A DNA stretch of 64,000 bases from Escherichia coli (GTDB taxonomy: Bacteria; Pseudomonadota; Gammaproteobacteria; Enterobacterales; Enterobacteriaceae). The stretch lies in the NCBI RefSeq assembly GCF_016903815.1, contig NZ_CP069973.1; one strand, 5' to 3'. The notes beneath the pieces were generated by a model that saw only the letters and a program-made list of their open reading frames with translations, ran no database searches and had not been told where the DNA came from. A program made the position numbers and the translations under genes. Each line of letters starts with the position of its first letter. The first letter of the stretch is position 1. Shown piece by piece: positions 35,381 to 50,768 of this stretch.

Positions 35381-36976
35381 GTGTTAGTTTCCAGTAACGT
35401 CACCATGCAGTTCGGCAGTAAGCCGTTGTTTGAAAACATTTCCGTCAAATTTGGCGGCGGCAACCGTTACGGCCTGATTGGCGCGAACGGTAGTGGTAAA
35501 TCCACCTTTATGAAGATCCTCGGCGGCGACTTAGAGCCGACGTTGGGTAACGTTTCCCTCGATCCCAACGAGCGCATTGGTAAGCTGCGTCAGGATCAGT
35601 TTGCCTTTGAAGAGTTCACTGTGCTGGATACGGTGATCATGGGGCATAAAGAGTTGTGGGAAGTGAAGCAGGAGCGTGACCGCATCTATGCTTTGCCGGA
35701 AATGAGTGAGGAAGACGGCTATAAAGTGGCCGATCTGGAAGTGAAATACGGCGAAATGGACGGTTACTCTGCGGAAGCTCGCGCCGGTGAACTGTTGCTT
35801 GGCGTGGGAATTCCAGTGGAACAGCACTACGGCCCGATGAGTGAAGTTGCTCCTGGCTGGAAGCTGCGTGTGCTGCTGGCGCAGGCGCTGTTTGCTGATC
35901 CGGACATTCTCCTGCTCGACGAACCGACCAACAACCTCGACATCGACACCATTCGCTGGCTGGAACAGGTGCTGAACGAGCGTGACAGCACCATGATCAT
36001 CATCTCGCACGACCGTCACTTTCTTAACATGGTTTGTACCCACATGGCGGATCTGGATTACGGCGAGCTGCGCGTTTATCCGGGCAACTACGATGAGTAC
36101 ATGACGGCGGCGACCCAGGCGCGTGAACGTCTGCTGGCTGATAACGCCAAGAAGAAGGCGCAGATTGCTGAGCTGCAATCTTTCGTTAGCCGCTTTAGTG
36201 CCAACGCCTCGAAATCTCGCCAGGCAACTTCGCGCGCGCGCCAGATTGATAAAATCAAACTGGAAGAGGTGAAAGCCTCCAGCCGTCAGAACCCGTTCAT
36301 CCGTTTTGAACAGGATAAGAAACTGTTCCGTAACGCGCTGGAAGTGGAAGGTCTGACCAAAGGGTTTGATAACGGTCCGCTGTTTAAAAATCTCAACCTG
36401 CTGCTGGAGGTCGGTGAAAAACTTGCGGTACTGGGTACCAACGGCGTCGGTAAATCAACGCTGCTGAAAACGCTGGTGGGCGCTCTGCAACCGGACAGCG
36501 GCACCGTAAAATGGTCTGAAAACGCACGCATTGGTTACTACGCCCAGGACCATGAATATGAGTTCGAAAATGATCTGACCGTGTTCGAATGGATGAGCCA
36601 GTGGAAGCAGGAAGGCGATGACGAGCAGGCGGTACGCAGCATTCTCGGTCGTTTGCTGTTCAGCCAGGACGACATCAAAAAGCCAGCGAAAGTGCTTTCC
36701 GGTGGAGAAAAAGGGCGGATGCTGTTTGGTAAGTTAATGATGCAGAAGCCGAACATTCTGATCATGGACGAACCGACCAACCACCTGGATATGGAATCCA
36801 TTGAGTCGCTGAACATGGCGCTGGAACTGTATCAGGGCACGCTGATCTTTGTTTCTCACGACCGTGAGTTTGTAAGCTCCCTGGCGACCCGCATTCTGGA
36901 AATCACCCCGGAACGCGTGATCGACTTTAGCGGTAATTACGAAGATTATCTGCGTAGTAAAGGGATCGATGGTTAA
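35381..36976 (+). CDS. ybiT: ABC-F family ATPase YbiT (two nucleotide-binding domains, no membrane domain)
   Basis: 531 aa with two Walker A motifs ([18 protein letters not shown]) and two signature motifs. Confidence 0.92.
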
Positions 36977-37155
36977 TTCCCCGCCGTCTTTCATGCGGCA
37001 GATGCATTGGCTTCACCTGTTCACCCCGGTCACTTACTTATTTAAGCTCCCGGGGTTTACAGGTTTGCTGCCTTCCTGCAGCGTGAAATACTGAGGTAAA
37101 GGATTCGATGGCTGGACCGGGTAAGGCGCAGTCGCCTCCCGGCCCCGGTAATGAT

Positions 37156-39531
37156 TTAACGCATCCATTCACTCCCTTCAACACCATTGACCAGCAGCGT
37201 GCGTTTTTCTTCCACTGGTAATGACACTTTCAGTGCACTCCATGCAGGTCGATAATCCCCGCGCGCGTTGACTTTCAGGTTGATGGTCGCCCCATCGCAA
37301 ACCATTTCCCATTCCACCCAAAGCGCATTACCAGTTTGGTAGCCCCAGCTTTCGCCATCGTCTTCAAACAGCAGGCCGGACGTTGTGCCCACACCTTTCA
37401 GCGGGAACAGTTTCAGTTCGCGGGTATCGTCTTGTTCTGCGCTCACATAGGTGATGCGTTTGCTGAGCGGTAGACCAGCCCCGGCACGCACCATCAGCGG
37501 CAGTTTCTCCAGCGGTGCGTCGAGGGTGATCCACTGACCGCCACTGAACCATTCGCCGTTGTAGAAATCGTACCAGCCAGTTTCGTTATCTGGCAGCCAT
37601 ACACGGCGCTGGCGCTCGCCTTGCTCTACGACGCTGGCAACCAAAATATCGCGACCAAGCAGGAAGTCATCACACTCTTCAAAAGTCTGAACGTCGTGCT
37701 CGTGGTCAAGGAAAGTCGGACGTAGCATTGGTTCATCATCGGCGTATGCCTGCCACATCAGGGTATAAAAGTAGGGCAGCAGGCGATAGCGCAACTCAAT
37801 AGCGCTGCGGATCGCCGGAGTGACGCCCGGATACATCCACGGTTCGTTTACGGTATGGTCATCGTTCCACGAGTGAATCGTAAAGCGCGGATGCATCACG
37901 CCGTTTTGTACCCAGCGTACAAACAGTTCCGGGTCCGGCTTATCACCGGAGAAACCGCCGACGTCGTGACCGAGGTTATACAGCCCGGAGAGGCTCATCC
38001 CCAGACCCATGCGGGTGTTGTAGCGCAGAGTGTCCCAGCTAGTGCGGTTATCGCCGCTCCAGGTCTGCACATAGCGCTGCATTCCCGCGCAGCCGGAGCG
38101 GGAGATCAAGTACGGACGTTTTTCCGGAGCGAAACGTTGCTGGGCTTCCATCGAGGCTCGCATCATCAGCAGTGGCATCACCGGGCGAATATGTTTGATC
38201 GCGATCGTCTGACCAAAGCCGTGACAGCGTGCTTCACCGTCCCATACTTCGAATTCGTTGTTGTCGTTCCAGGTGGAGTCGATACCCATCTCCAGAAGCT
38301 GTGTGGTCACGCCTTCCTGCCACCACTGGATGGTCTGCGGATTAGTAAAGTCGAGGTTAGAACCTTCGTCATCCCAGAAGCTGGAACGTTCTGGTTCATC
38401 TGTTTCTGAATCACGGATGAACAGTCCTCTTTCTGCCACTTCGTTATAGCGTGGGTGATCCTGCAACAGGCACGGCTTGATATTGGCGGCCAAGTGCAAA
38501 CCAGCATTGTGAAATGCCTGGCTCATCACTTTCGGCTGCGGCACTTTGTCGTAATTCCAGTTGAACACATAGCGCTTGCCGTTAATTGAGGTATAACCGG
38601 AAGAGAGCTGGAACGAATCGCAGGGAATCGCATGTTCTTCACACAGGCGGATAAAGTTCATCAACTGATTTTGTGCGTCCGGCGCATCGGTGTAGTGCAT
38701 AGTTGAACCGCTGTAGCCCAGGCTCCATTTCGGTCCGAACAGGGTTTTGCCGGTCAGGCGTACGAAGGCTTTGGTGATATCAAGTACGCGTTCGCCGGTA
38801 AACAGGTAGTAGTCGATATCACCCGCTTCCGCCTGCCAGCGGCGATAGGCGGTGTGGTAGTTGTCGATCTCGTTGCCCAGATCCAGCCAGCAGCTGCTGA
38901 GGTTGTCATAAAACAGGCCGAAGCTAACGTCATCGCGGCGGGTGATGGTGAATGGAATGTGTTTGTACAACGGGTCAGTACTCACGGCGTTGTAGCCCAT
39001 CGCGTCGAGGTTACGCATCTCGTAACGTTTACCGTTGCGTTGCAGGTCGCCGGCTTTATCTCCGAGGCCATAAAAGCGTTCATCTTTACGACGGCTCTGA
39101 TAGTGCGCCACGCCGTCGCCGTGGGCATTCAGCAGATAAGCGCTGGTCGGGCGGTCATTCACCAACGGCAGCCATTCGCCTTCGTTGTTACGATAGTGCC
39201 ACTCCAGCCACAGCGGCTGGTGAACGGTGGCACGCAGTGACTCGGTGGCGATAACCACGGTGTCGTCGTGCTGGATCAATGTCCACGCGGGCAGGCTAAA
39301 GCCGCTGAGATCTTCGCGGCTGCGCCCTTCCCATGGCACATCCTGCGCCGGAGCAATGCTCCAGGTGCGATCCAGCGCCAGCTCGCCTTTGCGTTTTAAC
39401 AGCACGCGGAACAGATTTTCTTCCAGCACGTACAGGCACAGGATATGCTGGCCATCGACCAGCAGTTCAACGTGGTGGGCAGACTGTTTGTGCAGGGTCC
39501 AGTTTTTCAGCGTTTTCATGTTTACATCCAC
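37156..39531 (-). CDS. glycoside hydrolase family 31 enzyme (alpha-glycosidase), substrate unknown
   Basis: 791 aa; GH31 nucleophile region (GIDSTWNDNNEF, like WiDMNE) and acid/base region (GHDVGGF, like GADICGF); translationally coupled to the upstream MFS gene; not in K-12 between ybiT and ybiU as recalled. Confidence 0.75.
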   Translation of the reverse strand: MDVNMKTLKNWTLHKQSAHHVELLVDGQHILCLYVLEENLFRVLLKRKGELALDRTWSIAPAQDVPWEGRSREDLSGFSLPAWTLIQHDDTVVIATESLRATVHQPLWLEWHYRNNEGEWLPLVNDRPTSAYLLNAHGDGVAHYQSRRKDERFYGLGDKAGDLQRNGKRYEMRNLDAMGYNAVSTDPLYKHIPFTITRRDDVSFGLFYDNLSSCWLDLGNEIDNYHTAYRRWQAEAGDIDYYLFTGERVLDITKAFVRLTGKTLFGPKWSLGYSGSTMHYTDAPDAQNQLMNFIRLCEEHAIPCDSFQLSSGYTSINGKRYVFNWNYDKVPQPKVMSQAFHNAGLHLAANIKPCLLQDHPRYNEVAERGLFIRDSETDEPERSSFWDDEGSNLDFTNPQTIQWWQEGVTTQLLEMGIDSTWNDNNEFEVWDGEARCHGFGQTIAIKHIRPVMPLLMMRASMEAQQRFAPEKRPYLISRSGCAGMQRYVQTWSGDNRTSWDTLRYNTRMGLGMSLSGLYNLGHDVGGFSGDKPDPELFVRWVQNGVMHPRFTIHSWNDDHTVNEPWMYPGVTPAIRSAIELRYRLLPYFYTLMWQAYADDEPMLRPTFLDHEHDVQTFEECDDFLLGRDILVASVVEQGERQRRVWLPDNETGWYDFYNGEWFSGGQWITLDAPLEKLPLMVRAGAGLPLSKRITYVSAEQDDTRELKLFPLKGVGTTSGLLFEDDGESWGYQTGNALWVEWEMVCDGATINLKVNARGDYRPAWSALKVSLPVEEKRTLLVNGVEGSEWMR

Positions 39532-39533
39532 TC

Positions 39534-40841
39534 TCAGGCGCGTTTTGCGCGACGTTCAGCAATAAAGGTGACCAGGAAGAAAGCACCAATCAGGTCAAAG
39601 AAGCCCATGGCGATAAACAGGGGGTTAAAGCCGATTTTGTCAGCGGTAACCCCGATAATCAGGGAGAACAGGAAACTTGCGATCCACGCGGCAGAACCGC
39701 GCATGCCGTTAACAGTGGCCATCTGACCTTTGTCGAAGGATTCCACCACCAGTGCGCTCAGCATGCAGGAGATGATCTGGTGACCGAAGCCGCCGATGGA
39801 AATAAGGACGATGGCGATATACGGGTTATTGGTAAAGGCCATCACCGCCAGCGAAACCATCAGGAATGCGCCACTGACCGATGATGCGACAACGGAGTTC
39901 ACACGACTCAGCCCAAACAGGCGGGTGTAAAGTTTGGTCAGATAGCCGCTGGCAATACTGCCAAGATCAGCGGCGAGGAACGGCAACCAGGCGAATAATG
40001 CGATCTGCTTCAGGTCCATGCCATAGGTTTTGGACAGGTATAGCGGAACCCAGAAACTCATCACCGCCCACGCCGGTTCTGCCATAAAGGCCGGGATAGC
40101 GATACCGTAAAAGCGTTTATTTTTGCCTACGGTTTTCAGTGCGGTCAGAAAGGGTAACTTGACAGGGGGCGCTTCGTTATCCTGGCGGATAAAGTCCAGC
40201 TCGGCTTTGCTGAGGTTAGGATGCTTATCCGGGTTGTGATAGAACGCCCACCACAGCACCACCCACAGCATCGCCAGGATGCCAGTGAACATAAATGCAC
40301 CCTGCCAGCCGAATGAAGCGTGGGCAAAATAGATAATCGGTGGGGCCAGCATGGCACCGATGGAAAAACCGACGCCTGCCCAGCCTGCGGCGATCGGGCG
40401 TTCTGATTTTGGAAACCATTCACCGATGGTTTTGGCGTTTGCTGGGGTTGCCGCGGCTTCCGCACCGCCCATAAAGAAGCGCAACAGCGCCAGATGTACC
40501 CAGTTTCCCGCCCCCGCATGCATCAGACAGGCCAGCGCCCACAGTCCCGCGCAGATCATAAAGCCCAGTTTGAGGCCAATGACGTCAATCAGCCATCCAC
40601 ACAACGGTTGGAATAGGGTATAGGCGAGCTGGAAAGCACCTACAATCCAGGAATATTGTTCGGTGGTAATCCCCAGGTTGCTTTTCAGTTCGGGGGCGAG
40701 AATACCCAGCGAGTTACGCGTGATGTAGTTGACAGTAACACCGAGCAAAAAAAGGACCAGTATCCACCAACGCAGATTTTTGACGATATGGCGCGGTTTA
40801 CTGGCAGTCATATCGTTATTGATACCCTGACTCATATGCAC
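39534..40841 (-). CDS. MFS transporter, anion:cation symporter (ACS) family, ExuT/GudP-like
   Basis: 435 aa, about 12 TM helices; clear similarity to hexuronate transporter ExuT as recalled (…NYITRNSLGILAPEL…EQYSWIVGAF…GFGHQ…); annotated start is GTG at 40841 with an ATG two codons downstream. Confidence 0.75.
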   Translation of the reverse strand: MHMSQGINNDMTASKPRHIVKNLRWWILVLFLLGVTVNYITRNSLGILAPELKSNLGITTEQYSWIVGAFQLAYTLFQPLCGWLIDVIGLKLGFMICAGLWALACLMHAGAGNWVHLALLRFFMGGAEAAATPANAKTIGEWFPKSERPIAAGWAGVGFSIGAMLAPPIIYFAHASFGWQGAFMFTGILAMLWVVLWWAFYHNPDKHPNLSKAELDFIRQDNEAPPVKLPFLTALKTVGKNKRFYGIAIPAFMAEPAWAVMSFWVPLYLSKTYGMDLKQIALFAWLPFLAADLGSIASGYLTKLYTRLFGLSRVNSVVASSVSGAFLMVSLAVMAFTNNPYIAIVLISIGGFGHQIISCMLSALVVESFDKGQMATVNGMRGSAAWIASFLFSLIIGVTADKIGFNPLFIAMGFFDLIGAFFLVTFIAERRAKRA

Positions 40842-40863
40842 TCCACAGAATGGTATAGGGTTT

Positions 40864-40894
40864 GTGTGGCAACGTCAGAATGGAGTTGTCACAC
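40864..40894. promoter_or_regulatory. imperfect inverted repeat gtgtgGcaac-N11-gttgtCacac in the divergent MFS/LacI promoter region (candidate operator)
   Basis: 9 of 10 bp arm complementarity read in sequence, 23 bp upstream of the MFS start. Confidence 0.3.
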
Positions 40895-41129
40895 CACTTT
40901 TAACTTTTTGATAAATAAAGTCTTTATTGTTCGTTTTTCCATTATTTTTGTATGGAAGTTGTTCTACCAATTCACAGTAAGAGACCCTAAAAGCGAAAGA
41001 AAGCGGGTTTTGTGCACGTTTTTCCATGAGTGACTGATATACATTACTGAAATGGATTTAATGCCAGACAGAATGGGCTTTTTTGCTCATGAAAATTCTG
41101 TCATTTCCGAATTAGAGGCAGATCACAAA

Positions 41130-42233
41130 ATGGACAAGAAGCTGAAAATCGCCGATATCGCCGCACGTACCGGGCTATCGCCGAGTACGGTTTCGCGGGT
41201 GCTGGCTGGCAAAGCGAATACCAGTGCACGCGCTCGCGAACAGGTGCTGGCCTGCGCGCGTGAGTTGGGCGTGATGGATGGCATGGCAGCAGGTCGTATG
41301 TTGCTGAACAACCTGATTATTTTCGCGCCGCAACGCGCTTTTGACCAACGATCTGATATCTTTTATTACCGTGTGATCCAGAGCATCAGCAAAGCGTTAT
41401 CGCCGCATGAAGTGCGGCTGCGTTACTGCGCGCTGGAGGAGTTTGACAGCGATCCCGCGCTATTTCTCTCGCGGATGAATGAAGCAGATACGCAGGCGGC
41501 GATCCTGCTGGGGATTGACGATCCGCACATCCATGATCTGGCCGCCGATCTCGCTAAGCCTTGTGTGCTGATCAACTGCCGTGATGAACGAATGCGCCTC
41601 CCGGCGATTGCGCCGGACCATCGGTTAATTGGCGCGTTCGCCGCCCGCTATCTGTTTGAAATGGGTCACCGGGAGGTGATGAATGTGATGTGCCTGCGCC
41701 GCTACACTATGGAGCAGCGGTTTGCAGGGATTAAAGAATCATGGCGTCAGCATAATCTGGCCTTTCACCATGACCGTCATTTGCTGAATATCAGCAGTTT
41801 TAGCGCTAAAGAAGCGGAAGAAAAGGTCGGAGCGTGGCTGGATGCCGCCAATGGCAAGACGTTGCCGACGGCGTTTCTGGTCGGCGGGGATTTTATGGCG
41901 GCGGGAACGGTAAATGCGCTACATCGTCGTGGTCTGCGCGTACCACAGGATGTCTCGGTGATGAGTATCGACGGCTTTAACCTTGCGGCAATCGAGGATG
42001 TTCCCCTGACGGCTGTGCATGTGCCACGCGATGAGCTAGGCAATGAAGCGGTGCAAATGTTGCAACAGCGGCTGATTCGCCCGGATGCTCCGGTGGGCTC
42101 GCTGCTGCTGCACGGACGATTGGCGGTGCGGGAGTCAGTGCGGCGGGTTCGCCCAGGAAAAGGGAACACCGCCGTGGAACGGGAAGGGCTGTACGACACT
42201 CAGCTGTCGATTCCCAACGCTCGCTTACCGTGA
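41130..42233 (+). CDS. LacI/GalR-family transcriptional regulator
   Basis: ORF 41052..42233; start placed at MDKKLKIADIAARTGLSPSTVSRVLAG (canonical LacI HTH), 367 aa; periplasmic-binding-protein-like effector domain; 3' end overlaps the ybiU 3' end. Confidence 0.8.
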   Translation: MDKKLKIADIAARTGLSPSTVSRVLAGKANTSARAREQVLACARELGVMDGMAAGRMLLNNLIIFAPQRAFDQRSDIFYYRVIQSISKALSPHEVRLRYCALEEFDSDPALFLSRMNEADTQAAILLGIDDPHIHDLAADLAKPCVLINCRDERMRLPAIAPDHRLIGAFAARYLFEMGHREVMNVMCLRRYTMEQRFAGIKESWRQHNLAFHHDRHLLNISSFSAKEAEEKVGAWLDAANGKTLPTAFLVGGDFMAAGTVNALHRRGLRVPQDVSVMSIDGFNLAAIEDVPLTAVHVPRDELGNEAVQMLQQRLIRPDAPVGSLLLHGRLAVRESVRRVRPGKGNTAVEREGLYDTQLSIPNARLP

Positions 42234-43465
42234 ATGTTGAGGTCGGCAAGCGTAAAGCGTCCTTCCCAGTTTGTTTCATAGTCCTCGCGCGGGAAGTCGC
42301 CCGGCGATGCGCCTTTTTCCAGTGCGGCCTTCACCTTGTGCGCGTAGGCAAGATTTTTCTCGCACATCGGTGCCGCAGGAATGTACATCACGTTGCCCCA
42401 GCCCTGTTGATTTTCAACGGGGGCAACGGAATGGATGACGTCGCAGTGCCACCAGACGGAGTCTCCGGCTTCGAGTTTTGGAATGCTGGTTAACGCCTCA
42501 ATCAACAGTGGATGCCATTGCTCTGATACCGGCAATACTCTTCCGGGCGCTACGCCGCACAGTTCATCCTCCGGCACATCATCAAGCAGCGGACGTAACA
42601 GTACGTACGCCATGGCTTCAGGAATGGGCACGACGTGCAGCAGCCCCTGACCAGGCAGCATATCAGAGAGCGCTGTCCAGCCCTGGAATGTCCGAAACAC
42701 GGAACATTTGGTGGTGTTGTCCACCGTGTACTCTTCAACTTCCGTACGATGTGCCGCATGCCAGGGATCGTATTTCGCCAGATTGCCATTAAAGACGTTG
42801 GCGAAAACGTGCTGATACGCTGGAAGCAGCCAGCGTTCCAGCGCCCCGGAGTCGGTATGCGCTCCAAGACCTTTGGAGGTCGTTCCGGGCGGACGGCGGC
42901 GGATACGGTCAGGGTAGATGACGCTCACATCCGGGTTAAACCATTGCTTTCCATCACTTTCAAATGTCCACAGACGATTGAGAAACGACTGCACATTCGC
43001 CATTTCTTCACTCTGGCGGGCCTGCATTTGCGCCTGCGACCAGTAGATGGGGTAAATCTCGGGACGTGAAGCGCTGAGCGTCCCGAAGAAATTATCGCCG
43101 GGGCCTTTGTAGACCTCGTCAAAGCGGTTGCGGTCCAGATAGTCCAGCATCGACTGATCCCAGCCTAGCGCTTGTTCGCGGGGGAAATGGCCTTTTATCA
43201 CCGCACAACCGCGACGTTTAATCTGTTCGCGCTGCTCTGCAGTAACATGACCTGCTTTGATATCGGCATAAGACAGCACCGGCCAGACGGCATCGCCCTG
43301 TGCTTTGAGTGCGTTGATTTCAGCCACTCGCGTGGCAATGTCATCGCTTAGCTGATTAAAGATCTGCTGGACGTCGCCAAGCTGCGCCCGCAGCGCGTGC
43401 TTCATCTGACGGATAGCTGCTTTGTGATCGGCAGGCAATGTGTCGCTGGTAAAAGTAGAAGCCAT
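42200..43465 (-). CDS. ybiU: DUF1479-family protein YbiU
   Basis: ORF 42200..43471; start placed at the ATG giving MASTFTSDTLPADHK (421 aa). Confidence 0.85.
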   Translation of the reverse strand: MASTFTSDTLPADHKAAIRQMKHALRAQLGDVQQIFNQLSDDIATRVAEINALKAQGDAVWPVLSYADIKAGHVTAEQREQIKRRGCAVIKGHFPREQALGWDQSMLDYLDRNRFDEVYKGPGDNFFGTLSASRPEIYPIYWSQAQMQARQSEEMANVQSFLNRLWTFESDGKQWFNPDVSVIYPDRIRRRPPGTTSKGLGAHTDSGALERWLLPAYQHVFANVFNGNLAKYDPWHAAHRTEVEEYTVDNTTKCSVFRTFQGWTALSDMLPGQGLLHVVPIPEAMAYVLLRPLLDDVPEDELCGVAPGRVLPVSEQWHPLLIEALTSIPKLEAGDSVWWHCDVIHSVAPVENQQGWGNVMYIPAAPMCEKNLAYAHKVKAALEKGASPGDFPREDYETNWEGRFTLADLNIHGKRALGIDS

Positions 43466-43481
43466 AACCACCTCGCATTAA

Positions 43482-43494
43482 CTTTCATTCGAAA
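43482..43494 (-). promoter_or_regulatory. conserved 13-mer TTTCGAATGAAAG, copy A (ybiU 5' region)
   Basis: Exact 13-mer on the minus strand, 16 nt upstream of the ybiU ATG; identical copies at 44503..44515 and 47951..47963. Confidence 0.4.
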
Positions 43495-43583
43495 CTATAA
43501 TGATTTGCATGTGACAATATAAGTTATAAATAAGTTAATGCAAGTTTAATGATTTGATGTGATGTACAGGATGTAAAAAGAAG

Positions 43584-43608
43584 GGAAAACCGGAGCGCAT
43601 GGCTCCGG
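43584..43608 (-). terminator. rho-independent terminator after ybiV
   Basis: Minus-strand ccggagccatgcgctccgg hairpin followed by ttttccc. Confidence 0.6.
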
Positions 43609-43616
43609 TAGAGAGG

Positions 43617-44432
43617 TCAGCTGTTAAAAGGGGATGTGTTATCCAGCACAGCCTGAATCACGTTCAGCGCGCCTTCATGATTATTATCATCGGTAGCGTA
43701 ACGGGCGATTTGTTTAATGTTTTCCGCAGCATTGCCCATCGCAAAGGAATAACGCGCCATTTTCAGCATCTCCGCATCGTTACCGCTGTCGCCAATCGCT
43801 ACCACATTTTGCGGCGACAGATCCCAGCGTTTCAGTAACCGCGAAATACCATTCGCTTTATGCAGGCCAGGAATAATCAGGTCGATAAAGCCAAAACCAC
43901 TGGTGACGGGTTTCATAATGCCATCCAGCGCTATGTGCAGTTTGTCGATCACTAACGGGATTTGTTCATCCGGCAGGTTGAGCGAAAACTTGAACAGTAC
44001 GTCGTCAATCTCCTGATAATCTTTTACAGGTTTCAGGCGATGGTAGTGTTTTGCCATCAGTGCGACAAATGCTTCAGGGGCATTTTCGCTGACATATGCA
44101 CTTTGCAGACCGCAGGCGACAAAATTGAGTTGCTTATCTTTTAGCAACTCGCCAATCACAATCCGCGATTCATGTCGGGTCAGTTCGCCGTGGAACAACT
44201 GCTTGCCATGTTCGTAAACCAGTGCGCCGTTTTCCGCGACAAAAGAGATCTCATCCTTTAGCTCAGGAAAGAACGAAATAAGCTGGTAATACTGATTACC
44301 GCTAGCGACAACGAACTCAATGCCGCGCTTTTTCAGTTCCTGATATTGCGCCATAAAACGTGGTTGGTTGTACGTTTTGGCGTCGTTAAGAAAAGTACCG
44401 TCCATGTCTGTGACGATAACTTTTACGCTCAT
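43617..44432 (-). CDS. ybiV: HAD-superfamily (Cof-type) sugar phosphatase YbiV
   Basis: 271 aa with N-terminal DxDGT motif ([13 protein letters not shown]). Confidence 0.9.
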
Positions 44433-44502
44433 AGGTGTGCTCCTGGCTCGAAAATGAAACCGTAACAGTGTAATAACAATGTGACGCAGAGCACAAATTA
44501 TA

Positions 44503-44515
44503 TTTCGAATGAAAG
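44503..44515 (+). promoter_or_regulatory. conserved 13-mer TTTCGAATGAAAG, copy B (ybiV upstream / ybiW downstream)
   Basis: Exact 13-mer about 70 bp upstream of the ybiV start; preceded by attata, as copy A is by ttatag. Confidence 0.4.
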
Positions 44516-44577
44516 CGAGGCTGAAATTGATGATGTGAATGATTTGGCCCGGCGACGCCGCCGCCGGGCTGAGGGGA

Positions 44578-47010
44578 TTACAGCATATGTTCAGTACGGG
44601 CGATGATATCGTCCTGTGCGTCTGGAGAGAGCGCGGTGAAGAAGGCGGAATAGCCCGCGACGCGCACTACCAGATCGCGATACTGATCGGGATGTTTTTT
44701 CGCCTCCAGCAGCGTTTCGCGGGAAACGATGTTGTACTGAATATGCCAGCCTTTATGCACCTCGAAGAAGGTGCGCAGCAGGATCATCAGTTTCTGCTTG
44801 TCAGATTCGTTCTCCAGTGTTGCTGGATTCAGTTTCTGGTTGAGCAACACGCCGCCGAGAATCGCTGCCGTAGGCAGTTTACCCACCGAGCCAATGACCG
44901 CAGTAGGGCCAAGATGATCAGTACCGGAAGCCGGGCTTGCGCCTTCTGCCAGCGGGGTGTGGGCTTTACGCCCGTCCGGTGTTGCCATAGTCTGCGCGCC
45001 AAACGGTACGTTAGCGGAGATAGACGACGTACCCGCGTAATAGTTGCCGCCAACCGGACCACGACCGTAGCGTGGGTTATGGTACTGTTTCAGTTCGTCG
45101 ATATAGGTCTGATAAGCGCGAGCCAGCAGCGTATCGACGGTATCATCGTCGTTGCCGTACTTCGGCGCACCGTTAATCAGCCGCTGACGCAGTTGCTCAT
45201 GAGTCAGGCCATCGAAGTCATCCGCCAGTGCGGCAGCCAGCTGTTGCTGACCAATCGCGCCCTGTTCAAACACCAGTTTCCTCACTGCCGCCAGGCTGTT
45301 GCCGAGGTTGGCAATGCCGACCTGCAGGCCAGAAACCCAGTCATATTTCGCGCCGCCTTGCTTGATACTTTTTGCTCGCTCAATACAGTCATCCACCAGC
45401 GCCGAGCAGAGAATATCGTGCACATTCTCCTCCAGCATGGTGTCAACGACATATTCGATTTCGATTGATTTGCGGGTGTAGTAACGGATTTGCGTGTCCC
45501 ACGCGTCCATTACTTCATCGAAATTGTTAAAGTTCCCTGCCGACAACGCTTTTTCTTGTGGCAGGAACACTTTGCCGCTGGTGGCATCACGACCGCCTTC
45601 CAGCGCCGCCAGCATCACACGGGCGAAGTTGATAAAGCTCATGCCGGTACAGCGATAGCCCCATTTGCCACCGACGGCGGTTTCGATACAACCAATCGCT
45701 GCATAGTCGTAAGCGTCCTGCGGTTCAATACCGAGTTTAATAAATTCCGGGATCACGATTTCGTCGTTGTTGAACGCCGGCATCCCGAAGCCGCAACGGA
45801 TCACCTGTACGCAGGCGTCGAGGAAATCGTTGCTCATTCCTGCATGGTAACGCACGCTGAGGTTAGGCTGAGTGGAACGCAGGCGACCGCAGGATTCGAG
45901 GATCGCGTAAGAGAGTGGATTCACCGCGTCCATTGGTTGACCATCAACCAGATTTTGTCCGCCAATGGTGACGTTCTGATACAGCGGACTTCCCGCAGAG
46001 GCTTTCGAGTGCGAGCCGGAGCGGATTTTGTTCACTTCCAGCAGTTTCAACCAGCAGCTATGCAGCATCTCGATGGCGTGTTCACGATCCAGCGTCTGGT
46101 TGAGTTCAACGTCGCGACGATAATACGGGTACAGATACTGGTCCATACGACCAAAAGATACTGAGTGACCGTTAGATTCGATCTGCAAAATCAACTGGAT
46201 GAAGTAACACAGTTGCAGCGCCTGCCAGAAAGTCTGCGGCGGCTGGTGGGCGATAAGATCGCAGTTTTCTGCCATCGCCAGCAGTTCATCGCGACGGCTT
46301 TCGCGGGTTTCGGTCGCGGCCATTTCACGCGCCAGGGCAGCGAAACGTTCAATGTGTTCACTGACTGCCACCAGCACGATATCAATCGCTTTCAGGAACT
46401 GCTCGCCATGTAAATCTTCCAGCACCGTCAGGTTGATGCGCGAGCGACGTTCCGCTACTTTCTCGCGCAGACCATCAAGACCTTTTTCCAGCAGTAGCGG
46501 GAAATTCACCGCCAGGTGCGCATCGCCGGAGGTCATATTGCCTTCCGCTTTAATGATTCCGGTCGCCAGCAGACCTTTTTGCTCATCGGTAAACATGCCG
46601 TAGCAGCGATCCTGTACCGTCTGACCGCGCCACCAAGGGCACACTTCATGCAGAACACGTTTGTTCTCTTCGCTCACCGCAAAGCCAGCACCGGGACGAT
46701 CTGCCAGATCATCAATCTCTTTTTCGATCCAGGAGACGGTATATTCCGGGAAGATCGGCGCGGCGCGAACTTCGCTTGCCTGGTTGCCAATGATCAACTC
46801 ATCGTGCTTGATCCAGATGGTGCGATTCGCCAGGTGATGCGCCAGCGCCAGCGCGCGACGTACCGGGATCGGCTTATCGAGATGTTGTTGATACATCTCA
46901 GTATAGTGCTGCGCGCGCTCGGTACAGACCGGCGGTTTCACAATATGCACCAGCGCATTTTTGTGCGCTTTAATGCGATCGCTGAGCGTGTCCAGTTTCA
47001 GTGTGGTCAT
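44578..47010 (-). CDS. ybiW: glycyl radical enzyme YbiW (PflF), pyruvate formate-lyase-like; substrate not established
   Basis: 810 aa; C-terminal glycyl-radical motif RVAGYSA present. Confidence 0.92.
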
Positions 47011-47015
47011 GGTTG

Positions 47016-47915
47016 TTATCCTCGTAAGGTCGCGGTTAACCCTTTCTGGCAGGCATACTGCTGGGCAAAGTCGAGCAGTTCTGGCGCATCAAGCGGTTGT
47101 TCCGGGGCGTCATAGGGCAGATTAAGTAAGTGATATTTGTTGATGCCCAGCGTGTGGTAGGGCAGGAAATGAATTTCGCTAACGTGCAGCTCGTCGGCGG
47201 CAAAATCGGTAATGGCTTTTACAGAGGTTTCGTCGGCATTAAAGCCCTGAATCAGCGGCACGCGGATAATGATTTTTTTGCCCGCTGCGGCGAGTTTTTT
47301 CAGGTTATCCAGCACTCTGGCGGCGTTACCGTCGGTCCACTGTTTAAACGGCGCGTCGGCAACGTGTTTTAAATCGGCAAGAAACAGATCGATATAGGGC
47401 AGAGAAGGGGCGATATATTTCCACGGCACATGCAGACAAGTTTCTACCGCAGTATGAATGCCGGCCTCGTGGCTGGCTTGCAGCAGCGCCGTCGCCATTT
47501 CCGGCTGCATGAATGGTTCACCGCCGGAAAGCGTTAAGCCGCCGCCGCTGCGATCGTAAAACGGTTTATCCCGCAAAACGGTCGCCATGATCTCCTCAAC
47601 GCTTTTCACTTCACCACACACGGTTAACGCCTGTGTCGGACAGCAGTCGGTTAACGCCGTCAGATGCTCCGGGGTTAACTTTTCCCGATGAATAAGCAAA
47701 CCATTCAGCGCGCGCTCAATCACGTCCGGCGCGGTCTTAGCGCACAGCTCACAGCCTTCCAGGCACAGACGTGGGTCATACAGCAGATCCTGCGTGCGGG
47801 CGCGGCTTTCCGGGTTCTGACACCAGCGGCAGCCCAGCGAACAGCCTTTAAGAAATACGACCGTGCGGATACCGGGGCCATCATGGGTCGAGTAGCGTTG
47901 AATATTGAAAATCAT
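47016..47915 (-). CDS. ybiY: glycyl-radical-enzyme activating enzyme YbiY (PflE), radical SAM
   Basis: ORF 47016..47942; start placed at [15 protein letters not shown] (299 aa) with SD gagagg; CxxxCxxC cluster motif (GCSLGCRWC). Confidence 0.88.
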
Positions 47916-47950
47916 AGTTGCCTCTCTGTTTCGTTCAAACATTAAAATAC

Positions 47951-47963
47951 TTTCGAATGAAAG
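47951..47963 (+). promoter_or_regulatory. conserved 13-mer TTTCGAATGAAAG, copy C (divergent ybiY / fsaA promoter region)
   Basis: Exact 13-mer 36 nt upstream of the ybiY ATG and 83 nt upstream of the fsaA ATG. Confidence 0.4.
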
Positions 47964-48045
47964 TTAGATTGATGTGCGTCAACTGTTCAGAGAGTTTTCC
48001 CGTGATAGTCTACATTCAGACAAAAAGTACATTTTGAGGATGGTT

Positions 48046-48708
48046 ATGGAACTGTATCTGGATACTTCAGACGTTGTTGCGGTGAAGGCGCTGTCACGTA
48101 TTTTTCCGCTGGCGGGTGTGACCACTAACCCAAGCATTATCGCAGCGGGTAAAAAACCGCTGGAGGTTGTGCTTCCGCAACTTCACGAGGCGATGGACGG
48201 TCAGGGGCGTCTGTTTGCCCAGGTAATGGCTACCACTGCTGAAGGGATGGTGAATGACGCACGTAAATTGCGTTCTATTATTGCGGATATCGTGGTGAAA
48301 GTTCCGGTGACCGCTGAGGGGCTGGCAGCGATTAAGATGTTAAAAGCGGAAGGGATTCCGACGCTGGGAACCGCGGTATATGGCGCAGCACAAGGGCTAC
48401 TGTCGGCGCTGGCAGGTGCGGAATATGTTGCGCCTTACGTTAATCGTATTGATGCTCAGGGCGGTAGCGGTATTCAGACTGTGACCGACTTACACCAGTT
48501 ATTGAAAATGCATGCGCCGCAGGCGAAAGTGTTAGCCGCGAGTTTTAAAACCCCGCGTCAGGCGCTGGACTGCTTACTGGCAGGGTGTGAATCAATTACT
48601 CTGCCGCTGGATGTGGCACAACAGATGATTAGCTATCCGGCGGTTGATGCCGCTGTGGCGAAGTTTGAGCAGGACTGGCAGGGAGCGTTTGGCAGAACGT
48701 CGATTTAA
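48046..48708 (+). CDS. fsaA: fructose-6-phosphate aldolase 1
   Basis: ORF 47974..48708; start placed at [16 protein letters not shown] (220 aa); transaldolase-like fold. Confidence 0.92.
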
Positions 48709-48783
48709 CCGGACGTTCTGCATCCTCATAAATTGCTGATGACGTGGCGGAGTGCCGCGTCTTATCTGGCCTGGAGGTGGCAG

Positions 48784-49533
48784 TTACTGCCCGCACACCT
48801 CACACCCCGGATTGCGCATCAGTTTCATTTCGCGAAACTGACAGGTCATCGCATCGTACATCACGATTTTCCCGCTGGCTGGTTTGCCATAACCTGCCAG
48901 CAGTTTGATTGCTTCCATTGCCTGCAACGAACCAATTACGCCGATTAACGGTGCCATCACGCCTGCTTCTACGCAGGTTAACGCGTTCTCGCCAAACAAA
49001 CGGCTGAGGCAGCGATAGCAAGGCTCGCCGTCCTGATAAGTGAAGACCGTGATTTGACCTTCCATACGAATTGCCGCGCCGGAAACCAGCGGCACCTTCG
49101 CGGCAAAACAGCCTGCGTTCAGTTGATTACGTACCGCAACGTTATCCGTACAGTCGAGCACCAGATCGTGTTTTGCAATCATCGCAGCAAGTTCAGCGTC
49201 ATCAAGCAGCGCATTGACTGGCGTAATCGCGATATGTGGGTTGATCCGCGTCAGGGCGTCACGGGCGGATTCCACCTTCGGTTGCCCGACCGTGGCATCG
49301 CTGTGCAGCGTCTGGCGTTGCAGATTCGAGAGCGAAACCGTGTCGAAGTCGAGCAGCGTCAGGTTGCCGACACCGGCGCTTGCCAGATACTGCGAAGCTG
49401 CACAGCCGAGTCCACCGAGGCCGACGATCAGCACACGAGAATCTTTTAGCGCCTCCTGACCGTCAAAATCAAAACCGCGCAGAATGATTTGCCGGTTGTA
49501 GCGCAGCATCTCCTGATCGCTGAGTTCCGCCAT
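48784..49533 (-). CDS. moeB: molybdopterin-synthase adenylyltransferase MoeB
   Basis: 249 aa with ThiF/MoeB nucleotide-binding motif (GLGGLGC) and C-terminal Cys pairs. Confidence 0.93.
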   Translation of the reverse strand: MAELSDQEMLRYNRQIILRGFDFDGQEALKDSRVLIVGLGGLGCAASQYLASAGVGNLTLLDFDTVSLSNLQRQTLHSDATVGQPKVESARDALTRINPHIAITPVNALLDDAELAAMIAKHDLVLDCTDNVAVRNQLNAGCFAAKVPLVSGAAIRMEGQITVFTYQDGEPCYRCLSRLFGENALTCVEAGVMAPLIGVIGSLQAMEAIKLLAGYGKPASGKIVMYDAMTCQFREMKLMRNPGCEVCGQ

Positions 49534-50768
49534 TACAGGCCTCCGAACAACGCGTTAAACGGTTCTACTTCCACCCATTCGCCCGCTTCAACATTGCCGC
49601 GATCGCGCTCCAGCACGATAAAGCAGTTACCGAGGCTAAAGGAGCTAAATATATGTGAACCCTGATGTCCGGTGGTCGTCACTTCCAGTTCGCCATCGGC
49701 GTTGCGTTGCAGCACGCCGCGCTGGAAATCAAGGCGTCCTGGCGATTTCTTCAGAGGCGATGCCGTGCGCACACGCTGGCGCGCGGGCAGGCCGCTGGCG
49801 GTATTGCCGCTTAGTTTTGCCAGCAAAGGCTGTACCAGTTGATAGAAGGTCAGCGTCGCTGAAACCGGGTTGCCCGGCAGGCCGCAGAACCAGCTATTAG
49901 AAAGTTTTCCGAACGCGAACGGTTTACCTGGTTTAATCGCCAGCTTCCAGAAGGCGATCTCCCCCAGCTCTTCAAGAATGGTTTTGGTGTAATCCGCTTC
50001 ACCCACTGAAACACCGCCGGAACTGATCACCACATCCGCCTGGCTGTCGGCTTCAATAAAAGCGGCGCGCAGGGCATGGGGATCGTCGCGGATAATCCCT
50101 AAGTTGATTACCTCGCATCCCAGCTGTTCTAACATCAGGTGTACGGCGAGACGGTTGGTATCGTAGATTTGGCCGTCGCCCAGCGGCTGGCCTGGCAACT
50201 GGAGTTCATCACCGGTAGAAAACAGCGCTACACGCACTTTACGAATCACCGGAACTTCGGCAATCCCCAGTGAAGCAATTACTGGCAGCTCTGCGGTAGT
50301 CAGGCGTGTTCCCGCCGGGAAAACAACCGCACCCGCAGAGATATCTTCACCGCGACGGCGAATATTTTGCCCGCTACGCACTTCAGCAGTAAAACGCACG
50401 CCATTGTCCGTTTGTTCAGTCTGTTCCTGCATGACCACCGCTTCGCAGCCTTCTGGCACCGGCGCACCGGTCATAATACGAATGCAGGTACCCGCAGGCC
50501 ATTCACCATGGTACGGCTGACCGGCAAAGGATTTACCGGCAACGGGCAGCGGTTGCCCGGAGGCAATATCGGCTAAACGCACCGCGTAGCCGTCCATAGC
50601 GGAGTTATCAAACCCCGGGACATCAAGCGGCGAAACGACATCGCTCGCCAGAATACGACCAAAACACTGTACCAGTGGCAGCGTTTCCTGGGCGGTCAGT
50701 GGGGTGACGCGAGAAAGCATCTCATTAAGCGCGGTGTCGAGCGACATCAATCCGGTGGTAAATTCCAT
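49533..50768 (-). CDS. moeA: molybdopterin molybdenumtransferase MoeA
   Basis: 411 aa; moeA-moeB operon arrangement with overlapping stop and start. Confidence 0.93.

Follow-up and report, generated by a model that had tools for sequence, protein, structure and literature searches.

In this study, we examined a stretch of 64,000 nucleotides of Escherichia coli DNA (from contig NZ_CP069973.1; hereafter the window) and, within it, the five genes ybiU, ybiV, ybiW, ybiY and fsaA at positions 42200-48708, which include those for a glycyl radical enzyme (GRE), YbiW, and its radical-SAM activating enzyme, YbiY. We conclude, with a probability of about 0.88, that this cluster is a known regulon of the core genome, repressed by the transcriptional regulator YciT, for the anaerobic catabolism of 1,5-anhydroglucitol (AG), a sugar analogue found in the diet. 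The data support the notion that all five genes work, and are regulated, together, since three conserved copies of a candidate operator lie among them and every one of the five is derepressed in a yciT deletion. Because YbiW was already de-orphaned in 2024, the value of this finding lies mostly in closing a lead; what remains includes a precise and deeply conserved candidate YciT operator that would reconcile two discordant published binding positions.

YbiW, YbiY, FsaA and the breakdown of 1,5-anhydroglucitol

The DNA of the interval 42200-48708 is 100% identical to that of E. coli strain 7/2 (NZ_CP023820.1), whose annotation our gene coordinates follow (Table 1), and to that of several other human isolates, and it is matched in 5,425 of 5,426 complete E. 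coli genomes. All five genes are free of internal stops and match their K-12 counterparts in length, with 97.7-99.5% identity at the protein level (identical residues: 416/421 in YbiU, 269/271 in YbiV, 806/810 in YbiW, 292/299 in YbiY and 217/220 in FsaA). Each of the five proteins scores above a curated family cut-off (TIGR01774, TIGR02494, NF009296, TIGR00099 and PF07350). An initial annotation of the window had called the cluster intact, had read a glycyl radical motif from YbiW and a CxxxCxxC motif from YbiY, and had labelled the other products as a HAD phosphatase, an aldolase of the fructose-6-phosphate aldolase (FSA) type and a DUF1479 protein; each of these statements is borne out, the three labels by the cut-offs of TIGR00099, NF009296 and PF07350, respectively. 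The K-12 locus agrees with the window in gene content, gene order, spacing and operator copies, and its YbiW, YbiY and FsaA have identical catalytic motifs, the few differences being conservative substitutions (4 in YbiW and 7 in YbiY).

The Cys loop of YbiW holds a single Cys, like that of GRE eliminases, and lacks the Cys-Cys pair of pyruvate formate-lyase (PFL), and its C-terminal glycyl radical domain is recognised by PF01228 at 112 bits. Among solved structures, YbiW matches 8ID7 and 8YJN (both 'Probable dehydratase YbiW') with E = 0, and, once YbiW itself is set aside, the closest structures are those of glycerol and diol dehydratases, with glycerol dehydratase at 4e-163. YbiW shares with the B12-independent glycerol and diol dehydratases, and with other GRE eliminases (1R8W, 5I2A, HypD and CutC), membership of TIGR01774, a glycyl radical site, a GCxE loop and a TIGR02494-type activase. 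It differs from the glycerol and diol dehydratases in that it opens a sugar-phosphate ring by C-O cleavage, whereas they dehydrate small diols, and it reaches the cut-off of no named GRE equivalog model. YbiY, whose gene is separated from ybiW by 6 bp, carries an extra Cys-rich insert (CLEGCELC...CC...C) of a kind that is typical of non-PFL activases.

The initial annotation had presented YbiW as an orphan enzyme, a description that has been out of date since 2024. As summarised in a review (PMC12441222), Ma et al. (JACS 2024 146:26187) established its substrate as 1,5-anhydroglucitol-6-phosphate (AG6P), which YbiW converts to 1-deoxyfructose-6-phosphate. According to the same summary, AG and 1,5-anhydromannitol are both phosphorylated via the phosphotransferase system (PTS), the related enzyme PflD cleaves anhydromannitol 6-phosphate to the same product as YbiW, and E. 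coli is able to grow anaerobically on AG (PMC12441222). The product of ybiW in the window is, by orthology to K-12 YbiW, the predicted AG6P C-O lyase.

In our model, AG is imported by the PTS as AG6P, in accordance with the literature. YbiY would install a radical on Gly786 of YbiW, from which it would be passed to Cys441, allowing YbiW to cut the ring C-O bond of AG6P to yield 1-deoxyfructose-6-phosphate; installation of a Gly radical by an activase and its relay to a Cys are established for the family, and the corresponding motifs are present in YbiW and YbiY. The fate of the product would depend on FsaA. This protein (220 aa, TAL/FSA fold) scores 283.5 bits against TIGR00875, for which the cut-off is 246, and therefore belongs to FSA; it also retains Lys85, which we take to be the Schiff-base lysine. 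We infer that FsaA would cleave 1-deoxyfructose-6-phosphate to glyceraldehyde-3-phosphate and hydroxyacetone, because FSA takes hydroxyacetone as a donor (PMC7767278), because fsaA is divergent from ybiY and co-regulated with the cluster, and because a parallel pflDC/fsaB-gldA locus exists. The latter is a paralogous GRE locus of K-12, frwCB-pflD-pflC-frwD, that adjoins ptsA-fsaB-gldA. This PflD/PflC-FsaB-GldA-Frw PTS system, which forms the 1,5-anhydromannitol-6-phosphate branch, follows the same logic of GRE, activase and FSA-type aldolase, and PflD (8YJO) matches YbiW of the window at E = 2e-145. Unlike the ybi cluster, the pflD locus has PTS components of its own and gldA, and it lacks equivalents of ybiU and ybiV as well as the 13-mer described below, no copy of which was found at the K-12 pflD/fsaB locus. 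Ma et al. are said to have found, in 2024, that either FsaA or FsaB splits the product of the GRE reaction into glyceraldehyde-3-phosphate and hydroxyacetone, and that GldA reduces the hydroxyacetone. AG6P is also of clinical relevance, in the neutropenia of glycogen storage disease type Ib and of G6PC3 deficiency.

In Yersinia enterocolitica, ybiY-ybiW is placed between sgrR and sgrS, a sugar-phosphate stress system (PMC2760817). This placement echoes the theme of sugar-phosphate toxicity.

A conserved 13-mer and repression by YciT

ChIP-exo peaks of the DeoR-type regulator YciT in K-12 have been assigned to ybiV and ybiY, and RNA-seq of a yciT deletion gave log2 fold changes of +7.74 for ybiY, +7.04 for ybiU, +3.53 for ybiW, +2.20 for ybiV and +1.78 for fsaA (PMC8464067 supplements). 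In a reporter study, the ybiY promoter, ybiYp, was active anaerobically and recovered YciT in a pull-down, and the YciT site on ybiYp was placed ~100 bp off the ChIP-exo peak (bioRxiv 10.1101/2025.05.13.653802). In the window, three copies of a 13-mer, CTTTCATTCGAAA, or TTTCGAATGAAAG when written on the complementary strand, flank precisely the published targets, ybiU, ybiV, ybiW, ybiY and fsaA. A repeat search found three exact copies in the 64 kb against an expectation of 0.01; this was the only significant 13-mer, and all three copies are confined to the ybi cluster. Relaxing the search to 2 mismatches revealed no further copy in the window outside the ybi promoters. The same three copies, identical in sequence, are present in K-12.

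Conservation of the 13-mer extends well beyond E. coli. We compared 80 loci from other species, anchored on the GH31 protein encoded next to the cluster, and counted the 13-mer at up to 1 mismatch. It was present in 44 of these loci, all of which are from Enterobacteriaceae and have ybi genes, and was located upstream of ybiU in 42, of ybiV in 32 and of ybiY in 31; elsewhere in the 80 loci, including their GH31, MFS and LacI parts, it was not found. Thirty-three of the 36 loci without it have no detectable ybi gene, and the other three (L003, L005 and L006) end a few hundred bases past the LacI gene, leaving the ybi side unseen. Over 97 distinct site contexts, a 12-nt core, TTTCGAATGAAA, reaches ~2 bits per position between variable flanks. 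The orientation of the 13-mer relative to transcription differs among the three sites and, at ybiV, flips between species. That its orientation is not fixed indicates that it is a DNA site and not an RNA signal; an RNA element is ruled out by this and by the lack of any Rfam match in 36000-50000.

The 13-mer is most likely the operator of YciT, a prediction that draws on the coincidence of sites and targets. Each of the ybiYW, ybiV and ybiU units, and likewise the divergent fsaA, has one copy of TTTCGAATGAAAG, which would serve as YciT operator. To our knowledge, the YciT operator sequence itself is not defined in published work. The YciT regulon of K-12 has the same target genes and identical sites, and the operator sequence proposed for it is that of the window 13-mer; the assignment of the 13-mer to YciT is thus well supported, yet it is one that we infer. 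Division of the cluster into several units is in line with a terminator-like hairpin, followed by a T-run, that lies 3' of ybiV and is predicted to split the ybiV and ybiU transcription units. A consensus promoter scan gave matches no commoner than in shuffled sequence, and transcription start sites were therefore left unassigned.

In an older version of the K-12 genome the two ChIP-exo peaks span 858455-858488 and 862873-862900, corresponding to about 43636-43669 and 48054-48081 in the window; converted in this way, they fall in the 3' end of ybiV and in the first codons of fsaA. Given that the reporter study placed the ybiYp site ~100 bp off the ChIP-exo peak, 13-mer copy 3 fits the position reported there.

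Several observations weigh against an AG regulon under YciT control. The ChIP-exo peaks lie 100-150 bp away from the 13-mers. No 13-mer, at up to 2 mismatches, was found near yciT in K-12, which also rules out autoregulation of YciT through this element. The five-gene cluster contains no transporter or PTS dedicated to AG. YbiU and YbiV are co-repressed with the rest of the cluster and have no assigned step in the pathway, and ybiU is missing in ~20% of E. coli genomes (~1,095). The YbiW allele of the window differs from that of K-12 by E184K, H474R, K577R and D769E. Lastly, the FsaA and GldA steps follow what Ma et al. are said to have found, and the YbiW reaction is taken from the summary in a review.

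Table 1. Coordinates of the genes, motifs and sequence elements discussed in the text (window positions unless a locus is named)
Feature	Coordinates	Strand	Remarks
ybiU	42200..43465	-	DUF1479/Gig2-like; PF07350 at 515 bits
ybiV	43617..44432	-	Cof-type HAD-IIB sugar phosphatase; TIGR00099 221 bits (cut-off 137)
ybiW	44578..47010	-	glycyl radical enzyme; TIGR01774 1407 bits (cut-off 678)
ybiY	47016..47915	-	radical-SAM activating enzyme; TIGR02494 369 bits (cut-off 174)
fsaA	48046..48708	+	NF009296 452 bits (cut-off 306)
Glycyl radical motif RVAGYSA, YbiW residues 783-789 (Gly786)	44644..44664	-	read from translation
Cys loop GCIE, YbiW residues 440-443 (Cys441, Glu443)	45682..45693	-	read from translation
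Radical-SAM cluster motif CSLGCRWC, YbiY residues 25-32	47820..47843	-	read from translation
13-mer copy 1 (CTTTCATTCGAAA on + strand)	43482..43494		17 nt upstream of ybiU start codon
13-mer copy 2	44503..44515		ybiW-ybiV spacer, 71-83 nt upstream of ybiV start codon
13-mer copy 3	47951..47963		control region between the divergent ybiY and fsaA, 36-48 nt before the former and 83-95 nt before the latter
Terminator-like hairpin and T-run 3' of ybiV	43589..43609	-	8-pair stem, 6 GC
Pantoea vagans pPag3 cassette	L096, 6898-10062		further plasmid loci: L098, L099
GH31 glycosidase, cytoplasmic, neighbour	37156..39519	-	PF01055 (297 bits), PF13802, PF21365
ACS-family (DgoT-like) MFS transporter, neighbour	39534..40835	-	TIGR00893 269 bits, below cut-off 395
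LacI-family regulator, neighbour	41073..42233	+	divergent from MFS-GH31 pair
Conserved element, MFS/LacI spacer	40951..40976	.	imperfect TTGTTCTACCAA in the window; 19-genus alignment

YbiU, YbiV and a possible second route

YbiU probably has the fold of a non-haem Fe(II) oxygenase: an HTD motif at residues 203-205 and H345 are kept as far out as Candida Gig2, and two YbiU structures have been solved (2DBI and 2CSG). YbiV carries a DMDGT motif at residues 9-13. A literature search on YbiU, DUF1479 and Gig2 returned nothing functional, and a search for YbiU homologues gave close relatives only. The contexts of seven distant homologues comprised two sugar operons, of the sugar ABC-transporter and oxidative sugar-acid kinds, and five that were uninformative or eukaryotic.

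YciT and YbiU are linked outside E. coli as well. A ybiU homologue is directly followed by yciT on megaplasmids of Pantoea vagans and P. ananatis and on a Duffyella plasmid; both Pantoea plasmids have, in addition, a divergent Cof-type HAD gene beside ybiU-yciT, the Duffyella plasmid has no HAD gene listed, and a GRE is absent from all three cassettes. The P. vagans cassette has two motif-like sites, TTACGAATGAAG and an inverted TTACGAATGTAA, just before ybiU. These arrangements suggest that ybiU and ybiV are the ancestral targets of YciT, insofar as gene order can tell, and the travelling of ybiU and ybiV with yciT in Pantoea without a GRE points to a second, oxygen-compatible fate of the same metabolite.

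The strongest alternative is accordingly that the locus is composite, with ybiU-ybiV an older, GRE-independent YciT cassette that in Enterobacteriaceae shares its repressor, and thus one regulon, with ybiYW-fsaA and serves a different biochemical route; ybiU-ybiV may, for example, act in repair or detoxification, or convert the same sugar phosphate in an O2-dependent reaction. We regard this as a serious if tentative proposal, somewhat short of even odds. Besides the GRE-free cassettes, it draws support from Siccibacter, which retains ybiU-ybiV and the 13-mer without ybiWY, from the separate transcription units of ybiU, ybiV and ybiYW, and from the oxygenase-type HxD...H of YbiU, which fits a strictly anaerobic route poorly. 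Set against it, the role of YbiU is predicted from sequence, the contexts of its distant homologues are heterogeneous, and ~1,095 E. coli genomes (ST131 included) have lost ybiU, and with it the ybiU operator, yet keep ybiV, ybiW, ybiY and fsaA. In Citrobacter amalonaticus ku-bf3 (L020, 391-4246), autotransporter and GT4 glycosyltransferase genes replace ybiV-ybiW-ybiY, and ybiU is kept together with its 13-mer.

A more specific possibility, which we consider doubtful, is that YbiU is the O2-dependent counterpart of YbiW, an Fe(II) hydroxylase acting at C1 of AG or AG6P to regenerate glucose or glucose-6-phosphate, with YbiV as a safety valve. The HxD...H motif, the strong repression by YciT, the GRE-free Pantoea cassettes and the sugar-catabolic contexts of some homologues may be compatible with such a role. 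The corresponding rhizobial C1-hydroxylase of 1,5-anhydromannitol is still unidentified (PMC12441222). If YbiU does act in this way, the YciT regulon would be a two-branch system, oxic and anoxic, by which anhydro-sugars are salvaged or detoxified, much as human metabolism repairs AG6P.

The GH31-MFS-LacI module and the remaining alternatives

The five-gene cluster is flanked on one side by moeB and on the other by a LacI-family gene, a major facilitator superfamily (MFS) transporter gene and a GH31 glycosidase gene. Homology to K-12 ends at 36969 and resumes at 42207, and the intervening 5,237 bp, which carry the 5.2-kb GH31 module, stand where K-12 has a 240-bp spacer upstream of ybiU filled with repetitive extragenic palindromic (REP) elements. 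The boundaries lie within the last codons of ybiT and ybiU: YbiT has 531 aa in the window and 530 in K-12, and YbiU ends in ...IDS in place of the ...MDV of K-12 (M419I, V421S). Between ybiT and ybiV, three allelic states exist in E. coli. The majority state, that of K-12 (L002, 6553-8100), has the REP-filled spacer and ybiU; the second has GH31-MFS-LacI and ybiU and occurs in 577 genomes, including the window (36970-43620); and the third, in ~1,095 genomes, retains just the REP spacer and has lost ybiU together with its operator, as seen in 7/7 sampled genomes including ST131 (L083, 5777-5975). A recent foreign insertion of the module is ruled out by its flank-like GC content, which is uniform across the junction with the ybi genes, by its same position in many genera and by its core-gene-like divergence. 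The module is probably ancestral and has been lost from most E. coli.

The initial annotation had proposed that this module and the ybi cluster constitute a single anaerobic pathway, in which the GH31 enzyme would release an anhydro-sugar for YbiW or, acting as a lyase, make it. The order ybiT-GH31-MFS-LacI-ybiU-ybiV-ybiW-ybiY is indeed conserved in at least 35 species, among them members of Enterobacter, Citrobacter, Klebsiella, Kluyvera, Kosakonia and Leclercia as well as Salmonella diarizonae, and synteny of this kind inside one bacterial family is expected by descent alone. Uniform GC across the junction and the 34-bp overlap (42200-42233) between the 3' ends of the convergent LacI gene and ybiU also favour a single pathway, as does the fact that GH31 includes alpha-glucan lyases, which produce 1,5-anhydrofructose; the closest solved relatives of the present GH31 enzyme, on the other hand, are hydrolases. 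The distribution of the two gene sets speaks against such a pathway, however. The module is present in 577 of 5,426 E. coli genomes and absent from 4,849, whereas 5,425 keep the ybi cluster, such that 89% of genomes have the cluster without the module. Conversely, 18 species (of Buttiauxella, Cedecea, Atlantibacter, Mangrovibacter and others) have the module in the order ybiT-GH31-MFS-LacI-moeB with no adjacent ybiUVWY. Moreover, AG catabolism and the substrate of YbiW were, according to the review's summary, established in K-12, a strain without the module (PMC12441222).

The regulation and the probable substrate of the module likewise set it apart. It has a regulator of its own and a different conserved palindrome, and neither in the window nor in the 80 loci does it contain the 13-mer. 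In eight of eight Erwiniaceae loci (Pantoea and Erwinia; L046, L050, L059, L063, L066, L067, L073 and L076), the GH31-MFS genes lie divergently beside uxuA and a GntR/FCD regulator, not LacI, with uxaC in six of the eight; uxuA and uxaC belong to glucuronate catabolism. The transporter, a DgoT-like protein of the sugar-acid type, matches the DgoT structure 6E9N at E = 1e-38, and its gene is co-oriented with that for GH31. The module most likely takes up and hydrolyses an alpha-glycoside that is anionic and related to glucuronate, a prediction we make because of the DgoT-like transporter and the linkage to uxuA/uxaC in Erwiniaceae. It is thereby the opposite of the feeder expected for AG, a neutral anhydro-sugar that is borne by the PTS. 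On the sequence evidence, GH31-MFS-LacI is a unit separate from the ybi cluster, and a pathway common to both is highly improbable.

The details on which the joint pathway had been built fare unevenly. The 13-mer that the initial annotation had noticed is real, and it is confined to the ybi promoters, not common to the GH31 module. The longest sequence that the module and the cluster do have in common is a 15-mer within coding regions (38065-38079 in the GH31 gene and 43926-43940 in ybiV); shuffling gave a match of this length or longer in 4 of 100 trials, and none of the other genomes examined, K-12 included, has the pair. The 15-mer is thus ruled out as an element common to both gene sets, since chance accounts for it and the pair is not conserved. 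Of the neighbour described as a GH31/anion-transporter module, the GH31 assignment stands, and its partners are an ACS-type MFS transporter and a LacI regulator (37156-42233); the name 'anion transporter' belongs to ybiR, a separate gene further upstream. Altogether, sequence and published data assign YbiW a function for which no GH31 gene is required and show essentially no sign of co-regulation with the module, the very pattern that the initial annotation had named as counting against its own proposal.

The weakest alternative, in which YbiW would act as a formate-lyase on pyruvate or a 2-ketoacid ('formate C-acetyltransferase') and YbiY as its activase, has behind it database entries named, for instance, 'putative pyruvate formate lyase' and a count of YbiW among four E. 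coli formate acetyltransferases (PMC9055928), and is next to impossible given the single Cys of the GCIE loop, a score of 162 bits against the PFL equivalog TIGR01255 (cut-off 994), matches to PFL structures at ~1e-43 against 4e-163 for glycerol dehydratase, and the different reaction that the review's summary reports for YbiW (PMC12441222).

With AG catabolism under YciT retained as the function of the ybi cluster, the GH31 enzyme itself is of further interest: its sugar-binding strand is altered, and it is linked both to a transporter of the sugar-acid type and to genes of glucuronate catabolism. The protein belongs to GH31, with the nucleophile motif WNDNNE and the acid/base motif WSGDN both present, and has the four-domain architecture and catalytic motifs of GH31 alpha-glucosidases (glucosidase II of the endoplasmic reticulum, 5F0E, and Flavobacterium FjGH31, 6JR6), YicI and YihQ. 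It falls far below the cut-offs of the named equivalogs (305 against 800 bits for the alpha-glucosidase MalA, 229 against 606 for the alpha-xylosidase YicI and 138 against 553 for PRK10426/YihQ). Unlike glucosidase II, which has DVIWLDIEH at the corresponding position, it carries a strand, DSFQLSSGY, that is invariant in 79 orthologues, and it further differs from that enzyme in its sugar-acid-type transporter partner and in the uxuA/uxaC link in Erwiniaceae. By these features the enzyme may have a specificity so far undescribed in the family. A search of the literature on GH31 enzymes acting on glucuronides found nothing relevant.

The palindrome of the module lies in the spacer between the MFS and LacI genes, where the motif TTGGT-N2-ACCAA is perfectly palindromic in Serratia and Hafnia and imperfect in the window; this element is a candidate operator of the module's own regulator. 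The same spacer (40923-41027) also holds a direct repeat, CGTTTTTCCAT, at 40932-40942 and 41017-41027. Both the conserved element and the repeat probably serve the module itself as operator and promoter signals.

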